In this document: positions 35,819 to 63,975 of the stretch, piece after piece
Layout of the letters: each line of letters starts with the position of its first letter
Numbering within the stretch: the stretch's first letter is position 1
Source: an uncultured Actinomycetes bacterium
GTDB lineage: Bacteria; Actinomycetota; Acidimicrobiia; Acidimicrobiales; JACCXE01
Assembly (NCBI GenBank): GCA_963722185.1
Contig: CAVRKD010000001.1
Location: forward strand, 306,015 to 370,014
Reading direction: 5' to 3'
DNA: 64,000 bases
Program-made: the position numbers and the translations under genes
Notes under the pieces: generated by a model
What the model was told of the DNA's origin: nothing
What the model saw: only the letters and a program-made list of their open reading frames with translations
Database searches by the model: none

Positions 35819-36715
35819 ATGGATCCCCTCAGTGCTGCGGCGCGCCGTCTGGCGGCCGCGCTCGAACCGTTCGCCGGCCAGGTCTACTTCTCGGCCGAGT
35901 GCCACGCCGAGTACGAGAAGCTTGGCTTCCAACCGAGCCCCGGCGACTTCGGCAGCGGTGTCAACCTGCCCGACGGTCCGGCCTACTTCACGTCGCGCGG
36001 CTCGGTCATGGGCCAAGTGGCCGGCGAAGTGATCGCGTCGGCCTTCGCCGTGTTCAATCCGGCGGCCGTCGTGCCCGCGGTCGACTTCGGCTGGTCGCTC
36101 ACCGACGCTCCGACGATCTGCGCCGCCCGCGACCGTGGCGCCATCGGCCAGCTCGAGCGCATCCTCGGCGAGAAGCCCGACGGCATCGACGCCGTCGGCG
36201 ACTTGTTGGAACGCGCCTGCGCGCCGCTGCGTCCCGAAGGCCGGCCGCTGTTCGCCGGCCTGTTGTCCCAAGAGGTGCCCGATTCACCCATCGGCCGCGC
36301 CTGGCGCTACGCCGACCGCCTGCGGGAGTACCGCGGCGACTGTCACACGGCGGCGTGGACCTCGGCCGGTTTCGACGCCACCGAGATCGGCTTGGCCAGC
36401 GAGCTGTACTGGGGATTGGCGATGGGGTCCTATATCCGCACCCGCGCCTGGTCCGACCAGCAGCTCGAAGAAGCCAAGGGCCGGCTCCGCTCGCGCGGTC
36501 TGGTCGACGGCGACGCCTTCACCGACGCCGGCCGCGCCGCCCGCGAAGCGGTCGAGACCGCCACCGACGTGCCCCTGCAACCCGCCATCGAGGCGCTGGG
36601 CGGCGACCTCGAGACCGTGTGCTCGATGCTCGACGGTTACGGCAAGGACATCAAAGCCGCCGGCGGCTACCTCGGCGGCGGTCCCAACGACCTCGTGCGG
36701 GCTGCATCGTCGTAG
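35819..36715 (+). CDS. Conserved hypothetical protein (SCO6745-like family, recalled from memory)
   Basis: 298-aa ORF with N-terminal LEPFAGQVYFSAE...YFTSRGSVMGQV pattern. The function is unknown. Confidence 0.6.
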   Translation: MDPLSAAARRLAAALEPFAGQVYFSAECHAEYEKLGFQPSPGDFGSGVNLPDGPAYFTSRGSVMGQVAGEVIASAFAVFNPAAVVPAVDFGWSLTDAPTICAARDRGAIGQLERILGEKPDGIDAVGDLLERACAPLRPEGRPLFAGLLSQEVPDSPIGRAWRYADRLREYRGDCHTAAWTSAGFDATEIGLASELYWGLAMGSYIRTRAWSDQQLEEAKGRLRSRGLVDGDAFTDAGRAAREAVETATDVPLQPAIEALGGDLETVCSMLDGYGKDIKAAGGYLGGGPNDLVRAASS

Positions 36716-36737
36716 CAACGCGTGACAAAATGCCCAC

Positions 36738-55636: not shown

Positions 55637-56650
55637 CTACCTCTTTCGCTTCGAACGCTTGCGCGACGCGTTGCCGGGCCGCCCAGGCTGGGTCACGCGA
55701 CCGCTCGTCGGCTTGGAGCCGGTTGGCTTCGCCCCGTTGCCATTGGTGCTGCGCTTGTCCTTGGCGGCATCGGGCGTCGCCGCGGCGGCCCGTAGGCCGC
55801 TGAACAGGGATTTCTTAGGTTCGGCCTTCGCCGGGCCGGAAGCCGCCGTGCGGCTCTTGACCTCACGAACCTCTTCCATGTGGGCCCTCAGGTGGGGGTC
55901 GAACCGGTACATCAAGGTCTGCTGGGCAATGCGGTACAGGTTCGAGACGAAGAAGTAGAGCGTCACCCCGCCGGGAAGGGTGAACCCGAAAATGCCCGAA
56001 AACAGGGGCATAATGCGGTTCATCGCCTGCATCTGGGGGTTCATTTGGCTGGCGTTGACGTTGCGCGCTTGGGTCTGGCGCAGCTGGAAGTACGACGTCG
56101 CCACGACCAGGGCGATCAGGACGTAGAGCACGACCGAGCCGCGGCCTGCCTCGCTCGGCAAGGACGCGAAATCGACCCCGAACGACTTCATCCGGCCGCC
56201 GGACTCTCGCAGCGCTCGGTAGAGCGCGCTGTCCTCGCTGAGGTAAGACGGGTCGCCGACCATGCACTTGCCCTTGATGATCGAGCCGGCGCAGTCGACG
56301 GCCGACTTGACCTCGTCGGCGTTCTTCAGCTTGTTGATGACGTTGAACAGCACGATCATCACCGGGATCTGGGCCAGCATCGGCAGGCAGCCCGACAGCG
56401 GGTTGATCTTGTGCTCCTTGTAGAACGCCATCATCGCCTCGTTCGCGGCCTGACGATCGCCCTTGTGCATGTCTTGAATGCGCTTCATCTCGGGCTGGAG
56501 CTTCTGCATGGCCAGCATGCTGCGGGTGCCCTTGAGCGTGATCGGCGTCATGACGACCATGACCGTCAGCGTCAAGAGGATGATGGCGACGGCGTAAATG
56601 GGGACTAGGTCGTAATAAAAGGCCAGGATGCTGGCCAAGAGGTCAAACAC
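55637..56650 (-). CDS. yidC: Membrane protein insertase YidC
   Basis: Motifs KLQPEMKRIQ...YKEHKINPLSGCLPMLAQIPV and a basic C-terminal tail. Confidence 0.93.
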   Translation of the reverse strand: MFDLLASILAFYYDLVPIYAVAIILLTLTVMVVMTPITLKGTRSMLAMQKLQPEMKRIQDMHKGDRQAANEAMMAFYKEHKINPLSGCLPMLAQIPVMIVLFNVINKLKNADEVKSAVDCAGSIIKGKCMVGDPSYLSEDSALYRALRESGGRMKSFGVDFASLPSEAGRGSVVLYVLIALVVATSYFQLRQTQARNVNASQMNPQMQAMNRIMPLFSGIFGFTLPGGVTLYFFVSNLYRIAQQTLMYRFDPHLRAHMEEVREVKSRTAASGPAKAEPKKSLFSGLRAAAATPDAAKDKRSTNGNGAKPTGSKPTSGRVTQPGRPGNASRKRSKRKR

Positions 56651-56658
56651 GGTGTTCC

Positions 56659-56892
56659 TTACTTAGGACTTAGGGTCTCGGGGACGGGATCTACGCCGAA
56701 GCCTCCCCAAGGCTGGCAGCGGGCGAGTCGCTTGATGGTCAGCCACGTTCCCCGAGCCGCTCCGTGGCGCTCGAGGGCTTCGACGGCGTAGGCCGAACAG
56801 CTCGGGTGGAAGCGGCAGCGCGGCGGTCGGCCGGCGCTGAAGCCCTGGTACACGCGGATCAAGCCACGCAACGAGCGGGCGGTGCGGCTCAC
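56659..56892 (-). CDS. yidD: Membrane protein insertion efficiency factor YidD
   Basis: [15 protein letters not shown]...RCQPW motif. 77 aa. Confidence 0.9.
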
Positions 56893-57212
56893 GCAGGCAC
56901 CTGCCCCGCGACGGTTTCGACGGCGTCCACGAGCTCGGAAAATGCCGCGTCGGCGGCGGACGGGTCAGCCGAGATCAGATAGAAACCGCTGGTCAGAGGT
57001 GTTGTGGCGGTGGCCACGGCGGCCCGCAGGCGGCGGCGGATGCGGTTGCGCTCCACGGCGCCGCCCGCCCTTTTGCCGATGGCATAGCCCACCCGAGCGG
57101 AGTCAGGCGCGGCGAGGTAGCGCACGCGCAAAGGACCGCTGCGCACGGTGCGACCACGCTGCGCGAGGTCGGTAAACGCACGCCGTCCCCGAAGGCGATC
57201 GACGTTCGGCAT
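56889..57212 (-). CDS. rnpA: Ribonuclease P protein component
   Basis: 107 aa with the Arg-rich RNR motif [14 protein letters not shown]. Positioned between rpmH and yidD. Confidence 0.9.
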
Positions 57213-57227
57213 GAGCCGGAAGCCGAA

Positions 57228-57362
57228 CTAGGCGGAGAGCTTGGCGCGGCCCTTGCGGCGCCGCGCTGAGAGGATGGCGCGACCGGCTCGAGTGGACATC
57301 CGGTGGCGGAAACCGTGGCGCGTAGCGCGCTTCTTGGCATTGGGCTGATAGGGGCGCTTCAT
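57228..57362 (-). CDS. rpmH: 50S ribosomal protein L34
   Basis: My manual translation gives [44 protein letters not shown]. It is below the ORF-track length cutoff. Confidence 0.95.
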
Positions 57363-57499
57363 TGGAATCCTTGGCTGAAGAGACGTTGGCTGTTCCCCTT
57401 TTTGGGGGAGCAGCGGGCCGCGGATTGGCGGGCAGACGGGGCCCAGCCAACGCGACGGTGCGACAAGGCTACGTGCTCTTGGCCCGCTTTGCCAGCCGA

Positions 57500-57747
57500 G
57501 GTTGATAACGCCTGTGGATAACTGTGTTTGGCCTGGTCAGCGAGCAAATTAATCCACATCTTGCGCCTGTGGAAAACGGTGCTACGGTCGCCAGTTCGCA
57601 GTGACGGCGTCGGTGGTGGCGACGTCTCCCAGACAACCGCTTGCAATAGTTTGCTCTCCTTCCCCAAGGGCGCGCAGCAAGTAACCCGGGGGATCGTGGA
57701 CCGCAGTTGACGACGTTATCCACAGGTGTGGAGATAAGTGTGGAGAA
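57500..57747. other. DnaA-box cluster (rpmH-dnaA spacer, running into the dnaA 5' end)
   Basis: TGTGGATAA 57513..57521 (9/9), TAATCCACA 57550..57558 (8/9), TGTGGAAAA 57568..57576 (8/9), TTATCCACA 57716..57724 (9/9), TGTGGAGAT 57727..57735 (7/9), TGTGGAGAA 57739..57747 (8/9), GGTTGATAA 57500..57508 (7/9). Confidence 0.8.
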
Positions 57748-59149
57748 CCAGGACAGCGGGGAGGCGGAACGGCAGGTGACAGACGCAGAGCGGCTGTGGA
57801 AGGCGTGTGCAGACACCTTGCGAGCACAGGTGTCAGATGCGACGTGGATGGCGTGGTTTGAGGGACTTGTCCCAATTTCCAGCGACGAGCTCACCCTCAC
57901 GCTGGCGAGCCCAAGTTCGGTCGTGAAGCAACGCCTCGAGGAGCGATACCAGAACGAACTCAACGCGGCGGTAACCGACGCGCAGGGTTATCCGACCAAG
58001 GTTGTGATCGACGTGCGAGCGATCGAAGTCACGCCTGCCGCCGAACGAGCGCCCGAGAAGTTGGTCGAAGCCGTGACGGCCGACCTGTCGATCCCGCCGC
58101 CCCCGCCGGGCCGCGGCGAGCAGCGCCAACTCGATCCCGATTTCACCTTCGACGCCTTCGTCATCGGTGAGTCCAATTCGTTCGCCCACGCGGCGGCCCG
58201 CGCCGTCGCCGAGAACCCCGGGCGGGCCTACAACCCGCTGTTCGTCTACGGCGAGTCGGGCCTCGGCAAAACCCACCTCTTGCACGCCATCGGGAACTAT
58301 GTGCGCCAGAACTTCCCGCACCGCCACGTGCGCTACGTCACCACCGAGACGTTCATGAACGAGTTCGTCGACGCCATCCGCACCAACACCACCATCGCGT
58401 TCAAGCGCCGCTACCGCGAGTCCGACGTGCTCTTGATCGACGACATCCAGTTCATCGAAAGCAAGGAAGGACTCCAGGAGGAGTTCTTCCACACCTTCAA
58501 CGACCTCACCGGTGCTCGTAAGCAAGTAGTGATCACGTCCGACCGTCCGCCGAAAGACATCCCGACGCTGGAAGACCGGTTACGCAGCCGATTCGCCGCC
58601 GGCCTCCTCACCGACGTGCAGCCCCCGCAGCTCGAAACCCGCTTCGCCATCCTCCGGCGCAAGGCGGCACTGGATCCGATGGAGATCCCCGACGACGTGC
58701 TCGAGTTGATCGCCACGCACGTGAAGGACAACATCCGCGAGCTCGAAGGTGCGTTGACCCGCGTCGTCGCTTACGCCAGCCTCAACCGCCAGCCGATCAC
58801 CCTCGAGCTGGCCGAACAGCTCCTGATCGATCTGATTTCTGGCAACCAGCCACGCCAGATCACGCCGAAGCACATCCTCGACGCCACCGCCGAGACCTTC
58901 GGCTTCACCGTCGACGATCTGTGCGGGCAGAGCCGGCGCCGGCCCTTGGTAATCGCCCGCCAGGTCGGCATGTACGTGTTCCGCAACATCACCGACTTCT
59001 CGTATCCGGCCATCGCCAAAGAGTTCGGCGGCCGCGATCACACGACGGTCATCCACGCCGTCTCCAAGATCGAGGCTTTGATGAAGGAACGCCGCCAGAT
59101 CTACGACCAGGTCACCAGCCTGATCACCAAAATCAAGAGCGGGGGATGA
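57740..59149 (+). CDS. dnaA: Chromosomal replication initiator protein DnaA
   Basis: AAA+ Walker [12 protein letters not shown], Walker [10 protein letters not shown], box VII/VIII, and the C-terminal DNA-binding domain (DHTTVIHA). GTG 57740 has a GGAG RBS 6 nt upstream. TTG 57707 and GTG 57728 are alternative starts. Confidence 0.95.
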
Positions 59150-59234
59150 CCCGCGCGCTTCCTGTGGACCGCTGGGGACAAACCACACGCTTTTCGTCCC
59201 AAGTCCGGGCTGGTGTCACACCCCTGTGTGATTG

Positions 59235-59350
59235 TGTGGATAGCCCGCCTGAAACATTTCCCCGTCTGACCTGCACGAACGAGGTGTTGTTCACAATCCA
59301 CAGCACCTACTACTGCTACTGAATTTGAACTTAAAGAGTTAGGTAGGAAA
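59235..59350. other. Candidate oriC unwinding module (DnaA boxes + GC cluster + DnaA-trio-like repeats + AT-rich DUE)
   Basis: TGTGGATAG 59235..59243 (8/9), TTGTTCACA 59287..59295, CAATCCACA 59294..59302, GCAC 59303..59306. The top strand reads CTA CTA CTG CTA CTG at 59307..59321, so the bottom strand reads 3'-GAT GAT GAC GAT GAC-5'. A 29-nt tract of ~28% GC follows at 59322..59350. Confidence 0.6.
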
Positions 59351-59357
59351 ACCACCT

Positions 59358-60455
59358 GTGAAGTTTCGCTGCGAACGGGACGTTTTGGTCGAGGCGCTGA
59401 CATCAGCGAGTCGAGCCACATCTGGACGCGAACGCTTACCGGTTCTCGCCGGCGCGCGCGTCGAAGTCATTGGCGACGAGTTACGCATCATCGCCACCGA
59501 CCTTGATCTGACGATCGAGGTCGTGGCCACGGTGGCCGGCATCGCCGACGGCGTCGCTGTCATTCCCGCCAAGTTGGCGGCCGACATCGTGCGCTCACTC
59601 GAGCCGGGCGCGGTGACCGTCGAGGCCGACGACGATCAGGCCAAGATCGCATCTGGCCGCTCGCAATTCGCCGTGCGCGTGTTGCCCGCGGAGGAATTCC
59701 CGATGGCGCAAGGCGAGGTCGCGTCCGAAGCAGTGACCGTCACGTCGAACGAGCTGGCCGATGCGTTGCGGCAAGTAGTTCGCGCGGCGAGCGGCGACGA
59801 GGCCCGGCCGATTCTCACCGGTGTGTTGTTCATGGCGACGGCCGACGGCATGCAACTCATCGCCACCGACAGCTACCGCCTCGCGGTGCGCCAGCTGCCC
59901 GGCCAACACCTGGTGCGCGGCGACCAGAAGGTGCTCATCCCGTCACGCGCCTTGGCCGAACTGCAACGCCTGCTCGGCGGCGCCGGCGAGTGCGCGGTGC
60001 GGCTGGGCACGACCGAGGCGAGCTTCGAGGTCGGCACGGTGAAACTCACCACGCGGCTCATCGAGGGGGAGTTCCCCAACGTGTTGAATCTCATCCCGGC
60101 GAGTTTCCCGAACGAGCTCACCGTCAATCGCGACGCGCTGCTCGACGCCGTAAAGCGCGTCAAGCTCATGGCGCGCGACCAGACCACACCGGTGCGGTTG
60201 TCGTTGCGCTCCGACGGTGTGGAACTCACGGTCACCAACCCCGCCGAGGGCAACGCCACCGAAGACGTCGAGGCGAAGTACTTGGGCACCGACATGGCCG
60301 TGGCATTCAACCCGCAGTACCTCACCGAGGGAATCGAAGCAGTCACCGGCGACGAGCTGACGCTGGAAACCCAAGACACTCTCAAGCCGTGCGTACTGCG
60401 CGGCGTCGGCGCCGACGACTACCTGTACTTGCTCATGCCCGTGCGGGTGCCCTAG
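59358..60455 (+). CDS. dnaN: DNA polymerase III beta sliding clamp
   Basis: MKFRCERDVLVEAL N-terminus, three-domain length of 365 aa, C-terminal YLLMPVRV. Confidence 0.95.
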   Translation: MKFRCERDVLVEALTSASRATSGRERLPVLAGARVEVIGDELRIIATDLDLTIEVVATVAGIADGVAVIPAKLAADIVRSLEPGAVTVEADDDQAKIASGRSQFAVRVLPAEEFPMAQGEVASEAVTVTSNELADALRQVVRAASGDEARPILTGVLFMATADGMQLIATDSYRLAVRQLPGQHLVRGDQKVLIPSRALAELQRLLGGAGECAVRLGTTEASFEVGTVKLTTRLIEGEFPNVLNLIPASFPNELTVNRDALLDAVKRVKLMARDQTTPVRLSLRSDGVELTVTNPAEGNATEDVEAKYLGTDMAVAFNPQYLTEGIEAVTGDELTLETQDTLKPCVLRGVGADDYLYLLMPVRVP

Positions 60456-60474: not shown

Positions 60475-61575
60475 ATGCGGGTCAACTGGCTGGCCGTCCA
60501 GGACTTCCGTAATTACACGGCGGCCGAGCTGCATCTCGCGCCCGATGGGCTCACGGTCGTCATCGGCGAGAACGGCCAGGGCAAGACCAATCTGCTCGAA
60601 GCGCTGGCATGGTTGGCCACGCTGACGTCGTTTCGCGGGGCGCCAAATGACGCGCTGGTCCGGCAAGGCGCGACAGCGGCGTTCGTACGCGCCGAGGTCG
60701 ATCGCGACGGCCGGCAGCTCACGCTCGGAGCCGAAGTGCCGCCGCGGGGTTCGCCGCGTGTGCTCGTGAACGGCCAGCCGCTGCGCAAGGCGCGCGACCT
60801 GCTCGGTGCAATTCGCGTGAGCGTGTTCAGCCCCGACGATCTTGCTCTGATCAAGGGCGGGCCCGCTGAGCGTCGGCGACTGCTCGACGACGCGCTCGTG
60901 TCATTACACCCGCAGCACGCCGAGACGATCGCCGCCGTCGACCGCGTACTGCGTCAACGTGGCGCGTTGTTGCGCCAAGCCGGTGGCAAAGCAACGCCCG
61001 AGATCGTCACCACGCTCGACGTGTGGGACACCAAGTTGGCCGAACACGGCGCCGCGCTGGCCACCGCCCGCCGAGCACTGGCGGCGCGACTGGAACCGGT
61101 GGTCGCCAAGGCGTACGCCGGTGTGGCCGAGGGCGCGGCCACGGTCGCTATGCGGTACGCGCCGTCGTGGGCCAGCGACGATGACGACGAACGCGCCGCT
61201 CTGCACGCCGCGCTCACCGCGGCGCGCACCGATGACCTCCGCCGCGCCGTAAGCACGGTTGGTCCGCACCGCGACGAGCTCGACCTGCACATCGGCACGC
61301 TGCCGGCGCGCACGCACGCCTCGCAGGGTGAACAACGCTCGCTCGCCCTGGCGCTGCGCCTGGCCGTGCACGACGTCGTCACCGAAAGCACCGGGGCCGC
61401 GCCCATCCTCCTGCTCGACGACGTGTTCTCAGAGCTCGACCCGCACCGCTCGGCGGCGCTCGTGGCGAGCTTGCCTACGTGTCAGGCCATCCTCACCACG
61501 GCCGGCGCGCTGCCGCCAGGGGCGTCGCCCGCCGCGACCGTGCGGATTGAAGACGGAAGGATTGTCGACGCGTGA
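60475..61575 (+). CDS. recF: DNA replication/repair protein RecF
   Basis: Walker A GENGQGKTNLLEA, signature-like SQGEQRSLALALRLA, Walker B ILLLDDVFSELD. Confidence 0.95.
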   Translation: MRVNWLAVQDFRNYTAAELHLAPDGLTVVIGENGQGKTNLLEALAWLATLTSFRGAPNDALVRQGATAAFVRAEVDRDGRQLTLGAEVPPRGSPRVLVNGQPLRKARDLLGAIRVSVFSPDDLALIKGGPAERRRLLDDALVSLHPQHAETIAAVDRVLRQRGALLRQAGGKATPEIVTTLDVWDTKLAEHGAALATARRALAARLEPVVAKAYAGVAEGAATVAMRYAPSWASDDDDERAALHAALTAARTDDLRRAVSTVGPHRDELDLHIGTLPARTHASQGEQRSLALALRLAVHDVVTESTGAAPILLLDDVFSELDPHRSAALVASLPTCQAILTTAGALPPGASPAATVRIEDGRIVDA

Positions 61576-61901
61576 CTTGGAAACCGCTGCCGGAGGAAGA
61601 AGGATTCCGCGACCCGGAACGGATCGGATCGGCGGTTGACCGCGTGGCCCGCCGTCTGGGCGCGCCAACCGCCCACGCACTCAGCGGGCTGTTCAATCGC
61701 TGGGGCGAAATGGTCGGCGAGTCGATCGCCGCCCACGCCACGCCGGTGTCGCTCAAGAGCGGCCGCCTGCTCGTCGAGGTCGACTCGAGCGCGTGGGCCA
61801 CGCAGCTGAAATACATGACCACCGAATTGGTGGCGCGGTGCTGCGACGAACTCGGCGCCGGCGCGGTGAAGCAGATCGACGTCCGCGTAGCGCGGCGTTA
61901 G
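61572..61901 (+). CDS. DUF721 / DciA-like protein (Rv0004 position)
   Basis: GTGA overlap with recF. 109 aa. Pattern WGEMVGESIAAHATPVSLKSGRLLVEVDSSAWATQLKYM is typical of DUF721. Confidence 0.8.
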   Translation: MTWKPLPEEEGFRDPERIGSAVDRVARRLGAPTAHALSGLFNRWGEMVGESIAAHATPVSLKSGRLLVEVDSSAWATQLKYMTTELVARCCDELGAGAVKQIDVRVARR

Positions 61902-62953
61902 AGCTTCAACCGGGTGAGGTTCTTGAGCAGCGCCGCGAGCTCCTGCACGCTCAGCGTGGTCTTGGCCTGGAGGGTGGTGGCGCCGACGGTGATCTGTACC
62001 AGCGTGCCTTCCTCCTTCGACGAGCGCCCGTAGCCGCGATAGGCGCCCGCGGCGAACGGCTCACCGTCGAAGGGGAGCAGGCACCCGATCGGAAACTGGT
62101 ACAGGGACAGGTAGTTCCGTCCTGGAGACGCGGGGTCGGCGTACTGCAGCTCAACCTGGGCGCAGTCCTCTTTCGTTTCTTCCGCGGGGAGGACGACGGC
62201 GCGCACGAGTTTCCAGCCGGCGGGGATCGCTTTGGGCATGTACAGCTCGGTGTCCTTGAACGCTGCCACCTGTGCTTGCTCGATGCCGGGTGTCGGGTCG
62301 AGTTGATCGGCCGGCGGCGCCGCGACGGCCACCGCTTTCCCCCAGTCTTCGAATCGCAAAGTCACGGTTGTGGTTCCGCTGGCGTCGCGGGTGGCCTGCA
62401 CGAGCGAGCGGACCTCGCCTCCGTCGCGTACCGCGAGGCGAAGCGTCATCCAATCGATATCTTTCGCGACCGGCGCGCCGTAGAGCTTGGGCACGTCGAC
62501 ATCGGTGGTGATGTTCGTGAGCCCGTCGTGTTTGCTCGTGACCGTCGGGTGGTGCGCGGCGGCGAGCCACGCCGCCACGTCGATGTCTTCGCGCCGGCTG
62601 AGTCCGCCGCGCTTGGTTTCGGCGTCGAACGTGTCGTACTTGGCGCTCGCCAAGGCCGCGGGCGGAGCGGCCGAGCGCCGGTAGGTGACGTTCTCGAGCC
62701 TGACGAGTTCGATGGCGTCGTCGGCGTCGGTGACCACCGCGTGCACACGCGTCTGCGACTCGATCTCACCGGCGATGTGCACCTTGTCGAACGTCCCGTC
62801 GAACCGGACGCTGGGGTTCCGCTGCACGAAGGCGCGGGCTTGGTCGAGCACGGACTGCGCGTCCGGGGCCTGGTTGATCCGCAGCACGGTCGCCCCGGCG
62901 GCGACCACCAAAACGGCGGTGACCGCGAGCAGCACGCGGCGTGCGACCATCAT
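61898..62953 (-). CDS. N-terminally anchored extracytoplasmic hypothetical protein
   Basis: 351-aa ORF with TM/signal VLLAVTAVLVVAAGATVL. No family recognised. Confidence 0.6.
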   Translation of the reverse strand: MMVARRVLLAVTAVLVVAAGATVLRINQAPDAQSVLDQARAFVQRNPSVRFDGTFDKVHIAGEIESQTRVHAVVTDADDAIELVRLENVTYRRSAAPPAALASAKYDTFDAETKRGGLSRREDIDVAAWLAAAHHPTVTSKHDGLTNITTDVDVPKLYGAPVAKDIDWMTLRLAVRDGGEVRSLVQATRDASGTTTVTLRFEDWGKAVAVAAPPADQLDPTPGIEQAQVAAFKDTELYMPKAIPAGWKLVRAVVLPAEETKEDCAQVELQYADPASPGRNYLSLYQFPIGCLLPFDGEPFAAGAYRGYGRSSKEEGTLVQITVGATTLQAKTTLSVQELAALLKNLTRLKL

Positions 62954-63975
62954 GCGACCCTATCCAGGGGATCGGCGGTAGTCGGGGTCGCGGCCAGCAG
63001 GCCGATCGCCAACACACCCACGGTCAGCGCGATCGGGAGCTGGGGCGACGGGTCCCATCCCAGCTCGTGGAACCCGAACAGTCCGATGCCGGTGCGGGTG
63101 ATGGCGAGCGCGCCGAGGGCGGCGAAGTGCGCGGCGACGGCGATGACCTGGTTGCGGCGGGTGAAGGGCTGGGCGGCGAGCCACGCCGCCAGGACCGTGG
63201 CGGCGGCGGCCTCGATCACCAGCAGCGACCCGATTGGCTCGGGATAGTCGAGCGCGAATCGCAACTGCAGGTGCACGAGCGCGGTCACGAGCGTGCACCC
63301 GACGGCGACGAGCCGCAGCGCGTCGGCCCGCGCCATCCGAAGCCGCAACAGCAGCGCCACGGCCGCCGCGGCGAGAACAACAACCCCCGCGGCGACGCCC
63401 ATCGGCGACGGGCGCGCTGTGCCGCCTTGTACCGGACCTGATGTCACGGCAACCACGCTGGTGGGAACGGTCGTGGTGGTGGCGCTGGCGCTGGCGCTGG
63501 TGGCGACCGCGGTCGTCGTGGTCGGCGCGAGAGTGGAGGACGTCGTCCCGCCACCGATAGCGGGAATGACAATGGTGGTCGTGGTCGTCGTCGCGGCGGG
63601 CGCCGTCGTTGGCGGCGCGGGGCCGGTCACCGAAACGGTGCCGGTCATCTCCTCGTGCGGCTCGCAGAAGTACGGGTACACACCGGGGACGTTGAACGTG
63701 GCGGTGAAGGTCTGTCCCTGGTGCATCGAGGTCGACGCGAACTCGCCGCGACTCGCCGTCACGGTGTGCACCGTCGGGTCGAGGTTGGTCCACTCGACCG
63801 TGTCACCGACGGCGATGCGAACGTCAGGCGGCGTGAACTTGAAGCTGGCGATCGTCGCCGCGTGCGTTGCTGCCCGGGCTTCTTGTGTCACCACAAGGAC
63901 AAGACCTCCGCCTAGTGACACAAGAAGCGCCCAGCGACGCCAATGCGTCACGAAAGAGTGTCGTCGTCGCGCCAC
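62950..63975 (-). CDS. Cupredoxin (plastocyanin/amicyanin-like) domain fused to Thr/Ala linker and C-terminal polytopic membrane domain
   Basis: Signal peptide ...LVLVVTQEARA. Type-1 Cu ligand pattern DPTVHTV ... YFCEPHEEM. T/A-rich linker, then about 4-5 TM helices. Confidence 0.8.
   Translation of the reverse strand: MARRRHSFVTHWRRWALLVSLGGGLVLVVTQEARAATHAATIASFKFTPPDVRIAVGDTVEWTNLDPTVHTVTASRGEFASTSMHQGQTFTATFNVPGVYPYFCEPHEEMTGTVSVTGPAPPTTAPAATTTTTTIVIPAIGGGTTSSTLAPTTTTAVATSASASATTTTVPTSVVAVTSGPVQGGTARPSPMGVAAGVVVLAAAAVALLLRLRMARADALRLVAVGCTLVTALVHLQLRFALDYPEPIGSLLVIEAAAATVLAAWLAAQPFTRRNQVIAVAAHFAALGALAITRTGIGLFGFHELGWDPSPQLPIALTVGVLAIGLLAATPTTADPLDRVA

Follow-up and report, generated by a model that had tools for sequence, protein, structure and literature searches.

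A probable DNA-opening core of the chromosomal replication origin in the dnaA-dnaN spacer of an Acidimicrobiia-like actinobacterium

The window, i.e. the whole stretch of 64,000 nucleotides analysed here, has a GC content of about 0.68 and carries dnaA and dnaN on the plus strand, separated by a spacer of 208 bp (Table 1). Downstream of dnaN lies recF, and upstream of dnaA, past the rnpA/rpmH stretch, jag and yidC are found on the minus strand. The true start of dnaA is probably the in-frame GTG at 57740, giving a protein of 469 aa, and not the TTG at 57707; the string GGAGA at 57730-57734 precedes this GTG, and conservation in two relatives described below (L081 and L082) starts at TTATCCACAGGTGTGGAGATAAGTGTGGAG. 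At the start of dnaN, GTGAAGTT followed by T or C is kept in relatives. The usual actinobacterial continuation into gyrB and gyrA is not evident after recF (61793-63975). A plus-strand ORF in this region, 61793-63247 (484 aa), has no NCBIfam match, and judged by codon-position GC the minus-strand ORFs 61898-62953 and 62950-63975 are more likely to be genes.

Among species representatives, DnaA is best matched by metagenome-assembled genomes (MAGs) of Acidimicrobiales, Acidimicrobiaceae, Microthrixaceae and Ilumatobacteraceae. As their identity reaches just 51-60%, the window appears to derive from an Acidimicrobiia-like actinobacterium to which that scan offers no close representative, and by these matches the lineage is nearest to Acidimicrobiia rather than to the well-studied Actinomycetes. 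Closer relatives were recovered by a metagenome scan with DnaN, namely L081 (86% identity), L082 (84%) and L083 (74%). On the scale of the whole window, cumulative G-C declines and flattens out in a basin at 56-62 kb, the minimum falling at 61539; 4.6 kb remain to the right of the elements described below. The basin spans both the dnaA-dnaN and the rpmH-dnaA spacers without separating them. Gene-strand bias is weak, with 22 plus-strand and 13 minus-strand genes to the left of dnaA.

Table 1. Genes and sequence elements at the dnaA-dnaN locus (positions in the window)
Feature	Position	Strand	Remarks
Upstream DnaA-box cluster, rpmH-dnaA intergenic region and dnaA start	57513..57747	.	six box-like sites
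Upstream site TTATCCACA	57513	-	
Upstream site TAATCCACA	57550	+	
Upstream site TTTTCCACA	57568	-	
Upstream site TTATCCACA	57716	+	
Upstream site TTATCTCCA	57729	-	
Upstream site TTCTCCACA	57739	-	
dnaA	57740..59149	+	TIGR00362, E 2e-157; start in ORF list TTG 57707
Distal DnaA-box-like site CGGTCCACA	59163-59171	-	opposite orientation to tandem pair
Distal DnaA-box-like site TTGTCCCCA	59173-59181	-	opposite orientation to tandem pair
DnaA-box-like site CTATCCACA (TGTGGATAG as first read)	59235..59243	-	sequence read
Tandem co-oriented DnaA boxes, TTGTTCACA and (CA)ATCCACA	59287..59302	+	sequence read
DnaA box TTGTTCACA	59287-59295	+	sequence read
DnaA box CAATCCACA	59294-59302	+	shares 2 nt with box TTGTTCACA
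GC-rich gap GCAC, 4 nt	59303..59306	+	unchanged in L081, L082 and L083
Five DnaA-trios, top strand CTA CTA CTG CTA CTG	59307..59321	-	minus strand 3'-GAT GAT GAC GAT GAC-5'
AT-rich tract	59322..59350	.	29 nt, 21/29 A/T, 27.6% GC
dnaN ribosome-binding site AGGTAGGAAA	59341-59350	+	3' end of AT-rich tract
dnaN, GTG start	59358..60455	+	TIGR00663, E 2e-84, aligned from residue 1

Tandem DnaA boxes, the gap GCAC, five trios and an AT-rich tract follow one another at 59287-59350, and we refer to this block as the module. The two boxes stand in a register of 7 bp (TTCACA-A-TCCACA; consensus TCCACAATCCACA), which leaves 11 bp, against 12 in Bacilli, between the upstream box and the first trio. The upstream box TTGTTCACA has one mismatch to TTGTCCACA and two to TTATCCACA, and departs from TCCACA at its normally invariant C; the downstream box CAATCCACA has two mismatches and is followed by the 4-bp gap to the trios. 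From the module to the start of dnaN the distance is about 55 nt. A preliminary description of this DNA had given positions and strings for the boxes, GCAC, the trios, the AT-rich tract and the dnaN GTG, each of which matched on re-reading the sequence. It had also put the GC content of the tract at about 28%, with which the recount in Table 1 agrees, and had remarked that the tract must accommodate the dnaN ribosome-binding site as well, which is indeed found within it, ahead of the GTG at 59358. The distal box that it read as TGTGGATAG at 59235 stands as to string and position; L081, L082 and L083 read TGGGGATGA here, and the site is therefore retained just as a weaker box-like site.

The trio array is unique in the window. 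With both strands of the 64 kb counted, there is a single run of five or more [CT]T[AG] triplets, at 59307, the expectation from 200 first-order Markov simulations being 0.01. The published search for basal unwinding systems (BUS) was re-implemented as a box with at most two mismatches, a spacer of 0-16 nt and then trios, following either a strict or a permissive (NTN) pattern. With the strict pattern, the sole match in the 64 kb is the module at 59287-59321. The permissive pattern gives 12 sites with at least three trios, and five trios are reached just here and at 36730. The latter match (ATGCCCACA, spacer 11, five NTN triplets) fails the strict trio pattern and is most likely due to chance; it was placed within the span of the predicted ORF 35819-36715. 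Physical instability coincides with the array: the stretch beginning at 59316 has the lowest stability and the highest AT content of the 64 kb in windows of 30, 50 and 100 nt, its least stable 30 nt having -34.6 kcal/mol, compared with -40.0 in the rpmH-dnaA region.

DnaA boxes taken singly are less distinctive. Those with two mismatches are frequent, at 240 in the window or 3.75 per kb, and the consensus TTGTCCACA shows no enrichment by itself (9 matches in the window, 6.5 expected). Closer matches concentrate around dnaA: for TTATCCACA with at most one mismatch, seven sites are observed where 2.25 are expected, and six of the seven flank dnaA. TTRTCCMCA is matched exactly three times in the window, each time in one of the two intergenic regions flanking dnaA, which also hold 9 of the 23 matches with at most one mismatch. 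The lineage-adapted pattern TYNTCCMCA is found 10 times (3.9 expected in the window). When 7-mers in the dnaA-dnaN spacers of 68 related loci (5' part) are counted without bias, relative to dnaN coding sequence, TGTGGAT, TGTGGAC, TGGGGAC, TTGTCCA and TTATCCA come out on top, with 24- to 135-fold enrichment (TGGGGAC and TGTGGAC 30- to 60-fold), suggesting that TT[GA]TCC[AC]CA is a fair consensus for the lineage.

In a four-way alignment of the spacer, positions 59287-59321 are identical to the window at 34 of 35 positions in L081, 32 of 35 in L082 and 29 of 35 in L083 (83-97%), compared with 69%, 67% and 47% for the 5' part of the spacer and 52%, 49% and 54% for the 4-fold degenerate sites of dnaN. 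Purifying selection on the module is thus evident from its conservation far above that of neutral sites. The box pair retains 15, 14 and 12 of its 16 positions in L081, L082 and L083, respectively, and the trio array 15, 14 and 13 of its 15. Three of the four trio substitutions stay within [CT]T[AG] (CTA to TTA, CTG to TTG), the exception being CTG to CCG in L083.

In farther relatives the remaining spacer is unalignable, and the block is found again a short way upstream of dnaN (L001-L012 and most of L084-L147). From such loci we compiled 55 unique related modules, selected by the box pair alone, with DnaN 38-86% identical to that of the window. Their box consensus, T-[TC]-N-T-C-C-[AC]-C-A-A-T-C-C-A-C-A, is partly imposed by the selection pattern; positions downstream of the boxes are free of this constraint. 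There, the gap reads G-N-N-C (G in 0.87 at +1, C in 0.96 at +4), and the top strand carries T at +6, +9, +12, +15 and +18 with frequencies of 0.89, 0.67, 0.47, 0.45 and 0.60. This is accompanied by C or T at the first position of the triplets and A or G at the third, G being nearly absent from the first two, giving a periodic signal of 3 nt. Only a gap of 4 nt brings the trios into phase: at least three uninterrupted NTN trios are found in 22 of 54 unique relatives with a 4-nt gap, in 4 with 3 nt, in 3 with 6 nt and in none with 2 or 5 nt. At least five follow the 4-nt gap in 11 of the 54. The preliminary description had named in advance the conservation of trio phasing and of the GC cluster in relatives as the test of its reading, and both are conserved: GCAC is unchanged in L081-L083 and the 55 modules share the same phase.

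Beyond the second trio the array is loosely conserved and degenerate in many relatives; several marine lineages read CTA TGT ACC TCT ACT ATC in this region. Judging from these profiles, the boxes, the gap and the one or two trios nearest to them are under the strongest selection. In all 55 modules, the 25 nt beyond the fifth trio exceed their locus in AT content (mean 0.62 against 0.39). The distance from module to dnaN has a median of 58 nt among the 55 unique relatives, being 50-66 nt in 43 and 67-189 nt in 12. In L012, L112, L113, L117, L140 and L146 it is 127-189 nt, and past the AT-rich tract the extra DNA contains further DnaA-box-like words (GAGGACAAC, GTGGACAAC), which places boxes on both sides of the predicted unwinding site in these six loci.

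The basal unwinding system is reportedly due to Richardson 2016, for incC of the Bacillus subtilis oriC. By the rules of Pelliciari et al. 2021 (PMC8287927), it comprises a DnaA box with no more than two mismatches and, across a spacer not exceeding 16 bp, three or more 3'-NAN-5' trios; such systems were found in 85% of 2070 predicted origins, with tandem boxes in 57%, the better box lying upstream, and a spacer peak at 10-13 bp. The module in the window falls within these rules, having one or two mismatches (to TTGTCCACA or TTATCCACA), the 11-bp spacer and five trios, and it also shares the GC gap of about 4 bp, the GAT nearest to the box, 3'-[G/A]AT-5' being the preferred form of a trio, the unstable AT-rich flank and the trio-capture residues of DnaA. 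The boxes next to the trios are co-oriented; on the strand opposite to that of the trios, they read 5'-TTATCCACA-3' in the direction of the array. In B. subtilis, reversal of the trio-proximal boxes inactivates incC (PMC6669920).

The protein that would read this DNA likewise keeps the relevant residues. Residue roles in trio capture are taken from the cryo-EM structure of B. subtilis DnaA (8BTG, PMC10721633), in which the 3'-GA-5' of each trio is captured between neighbouring protomers and the third base is not; the two GAC trios found here are therefore compatible with the mechanism. In its ISM and trio-capture residues, aligned to chain A of 8BTG, DnaA of the window has (B. subtilis/window) N187/N218, I190/V221, I193/I224, R202/K233, K222/K253, E223/E254 and E228/E259, i.e. 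five of seven contact residues identical and two conservatively changed. The arginine finger (R264/R295) is kept, and the oligomerisation residues and the domain IV motif are conserved as well.

Taking these lines together, we consider it highly probable that 59287-59350 is the DNA-opening core of the chromosomal oriC, a basal unwinding system of the B. subtilis type. The order of elements that the preliminary description had likened to such a system is supported by the rules of PMC8287927, by its uniqueness in the window, by the instability of the AT-rich tract, by conservation in relatives and by the DnaA residues. By analogy with B. subtilis, we infer that DnaA binds, oligomerises on the minus strand and opens the DNA at 59307-59350. 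ATP-DnaA would use its domain IV to dock on TTGTTCACA and ATCCACA, the co-oriented boxes that would serve as a double-stranded anchor, and the AAA+ domains of the anchored protomers would reach over the 4-nt GC gap. A right-handed DnaA oligomer would then extend along the minus strand, bound as single-stranded DNA, each protomer interface capturing the 3'-GA-5' of one trio, and this capture would stretch and hold the strand. Melting would spread to the AT-rich tract, the least stable DNA locally, where the helicase would be loaded. To our knowledge, the helicase-loading partners of Firmicutes and their DNA motifs are not to be expected outside Firmicutes. The distal reverse boxes at 59163, 59173 and 59235, together with the cluster upstream of dnaA, probably raise the concentration of DnaA, loop the DNA or autoregulate dnaA.

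DnaA-box clusters flank dnaA on both sides, at 57513-57747 upstream and at 59163-59302 downstream, the upstream one being only partly conserved. Site 57568 and the triple TTATCCACA-GG-TGTGGAGATAA-GTGTGGAGAA (57716-57749) are conserved in L081 and L082, whereas the perfect box at 57513 and the site at 57550 are not. No trio array was found beside the upstream boxes in the window search, under either the permissive or the strict rule. The sites of the triple (TTATCCACA, TGTGGAGATAA, TGTGGAGAA) overlap GGAGA and GTG 57740 and vary little or not at all in L081 and L082. Given this overlap with the ribosome-binding site and start of dnaA, autoregulation fits and could by itself account for the upstream boxes; the triple looks like an autoregulatory operator on the region in which dnaA translation and transcription start. 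The existence of this second, partly conserved cluster means that the origin may be bipartite or that the cluster serves dnaA autoregulation; judged by its sites, it likely acts in dnaA autoregulation, as an auxiliary origin sub-region, or both.

The near-constant position of the module ahead of dnaN (50-66 nt in 43 of 55 unique relatives) and the identity of the 3' end of its AT-rich tract as a ribosome-binding site would also suit a block concerned mainly with dnaN expression, the box pair being an operator, the trios and AT-rich tract the 5' leader and translation-initiation region of dnaN, and the DNA being opened elsewhere. DnaA is commonly a transcription factor, and the boxes overlapping the dnaA start make regulation of this kind likely at the locus. 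From the near-fixed distance and the overlap it follows that part of the conservation could serve dnaN expression, and a role in expression can coexist with a role as origin. Yet a sigma-70 scan, in which actinobacterial promoters were not modelled, found no promoter in the spacer and no plus-strand terminator after dnaA, and no leader appeared in an Rfam scan of 56600-59600 (no family at E up to 1). The strand-specific 3-nt periodicity, locked to the 4-nt gap, is a signature of single-stranded DNA binding by DnaA and not of a promoter or leader, and in the 12 relatives with the module 67-189 nt from dnaN, extra boxes often lie between. As the main function of the block, control of dnaN is very unlikely in our view.

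It is very unlikely, too, that unwinding takes place in the rpmH-dnaA intergenic region, with the dnaA-dnaN boxes reduced to auxiliary loading of DnaA, the reverse of the bipartite arrangement in B. subtilis and Helicobacter pylori. This would account for the presence there of the best boxes in the window, two of them perfect TTATCCACA, of a secondary AT-rich patch near 57503-57560, and of the divergence in gene orientation between rpmH on the minus and dnaA on the plus strand. It is opposed by the lack of a trio array beside any upstream box, by the loss of the boxes nearest to the AT-rich patch (57513 and 57550) even in relatives at 85% protein identity, and by an upstream DNA whose least stable 30 nt are clearly more stable than those at 59316, while the upstream boxes that are conserved sit on the ribosome-binding site and start of dnaA, in keeping with autoregulation. 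There remains the idea of a chance resemblance, short motifs falling together in an ordinary intergenic spacer, which could draw on the abundance of two-mismatch boxes and on the 12 matches to the permissive NAN rule in the window. The strict array has an expectation of 0.01 per window, the module is conserved far above neutral sites, and it recurs in phase, at the 4-nt gap, in 55 distinct relatives, by which chance is effectively refuted and has next to no probability.

Returning to the unwinding core as the preferred reading, the module can be compared with known origins. It resembles B. subtilis incC (DnaA-boxes 6 and 7 and the AT-rich 27-mer; PMC6669920, PMC8287927) in lying between dnaA and dnaN on the same strand and in the same orientation, in having two co-oriented boxes with the better one upstream, a 4-nt GC gap of the form G...C, 3'-GAT-5' nearest to the box and an AT-rich tract, and in the presence of a second box cluster upstream of dnaA. 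DnaA itself is identical at N187, I193, K222, E223, E228 and R264, with conservative replacements at I190 and R202. Table S2 of PMC8287927 gives the top strand of B. subtilis as TTATCCACA-AATCCACA-GGCC-CTA CTA TTA CTT CTA CTA, with CTACTATTA... after GGCC and a spacer of 12, and that of Streptomyces coelicolor as TTATCCACG-GTATCCACA-GGCC-CTA CTA CTA CTG, with a spacer of 13, as also in Corynebacterium glutamicum and Bifidobacterium bifidum. In strand and orientation the module agrees with all four of these entries. B. subtilis differs in its box register (8 bp, here 7) and spacer (12 bp, here 11) and in having six trios, where the window has five, two being GAC; the AT-rich tract of the window is shorter and less extreme, set in a genome of 68% GC and running into the dnaN ribosome-binding site.

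The BUS predicted for S. coelicolor, C. glutamicum, B. bifidum and M. leprae (PMC8287927) belong to the same phylum and agree in intergenic place and order of elements, and the S. coelicolor array (GAT GAT GAT GAC) likewise ends in GAC; these four differ in having abutting 9+9 boxes and a 13-bp spacer. In the other Actinomycetes loci that were compared, the system lies 244-314 nt upstream of dnaN in a longer, box-rich spacer, against 55 nt here. Bacilli and Clostridia have a register of 8 bp, and Streptomyces, Mycobacterium, Amycolatopsis and Saccharomonospora one of 9 bp. With H. pylori oriC1/oriC2 (PMC8235120) the window shares box clusters on either side of dnaA and the combination of boxes, trios and unwinding element (predicted in our case) in the part downstream of dnaA; box consensus and spacing differ, the spacer there being 3 nt.

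A module with 7-bp register and trios is confined to the Acidimicrobiia-like set among the loci compared, which includes L007 and L008, and is absent from L013-L080 (other Actinomycetota and Firmicutes). Among the supplementary-table entries of PMC8287927 that were listed, there is no match to the 7-bp-register string, Acidimicrobium or Ilumatobacter. The strict trio expression proved too strict as a general detector, recovering just some of the known modules in loci of other Actinomycetota and Firmicutes. L007 (CAZCZM010000030.1) and L008 (CAMAWR010000024.1) are MAG contigs labelled Bifidobacterium, and their modules of the Acidimicrobiia type, TCGTCCACAATCCACA-GCAC-TTA TTA... and TTATCCACAATCCACA-GCAC-TTA TTA CTA TTA, are unlike the 9+9 arrangement given for B. 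bifidum in Table S2 of PMC8287927. Either the register is wider in Actinomycetota or these bins are mislabelled.

The differences in geometry fall within the published spacer range of 10-13 bp and do not make a new kind of element. Judged on the loci compared, the compressed geometry (7-bp register, 11-bp spacer) is lineage-specific and a mild novelty, and the module as such is canonical, the textbook arrangement, expected rather than surprising in a little-studied class of actinobacteria. A bolder proposal, which we regard as unlikely, is that origins of the Acidimicrobiia type have a compressed 7-bp/11-bp anchor that cannot be occupied in quite the same way as in the B. subtilis cryo-EM structure, that their unwinding zone is fused to the dnaN translation-initiation region, with about 55 nt from box to start codon, and that one or two canonical trios are enough in many relatives, the remaining oligomer running on a degenerate track. 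If this were true, opening of the origin would be physically coupled to expression of the sliding clamp.

The current picture of replication initiation is unchanged by the module. Within an uncultured, Acidimicrobiia-like genome of high GC content, it narrows the place where the origin probably opens to about 60 bp, which helps in annotating, in rotating assemblies to the origin and in designing replication-origin constructs. Among the papers searched, none dealt with oriC of Acidimicrobiia, and the evidence for the box, trio and AT-rich unwinding module as ancient and widespread is extended to this class. The 7-bp register, moreover, is a natural spacing variant with which the structural model from B. 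subtilis can be tested.

Two further elements are seen inside the dnaA-dnaN spacer. One is an inverted repeat at 59216-59231 (TCACAC-CCCT-GTGTGA, a perfect 6 bp with a 4-nt spacer), which is intact in L082, altered at one position in L081 and lacks conservation in L083, and which could be the site of an origin-associated regulator or could be due to chance. The other, a second conserved block at 59255-59286 that bears no resemblance to a DnaA box, reads TTTCCCCG(T/G)CTGACCTG...AACGAGGTGTTGT and is common to L081, L082 and, in part, L083.
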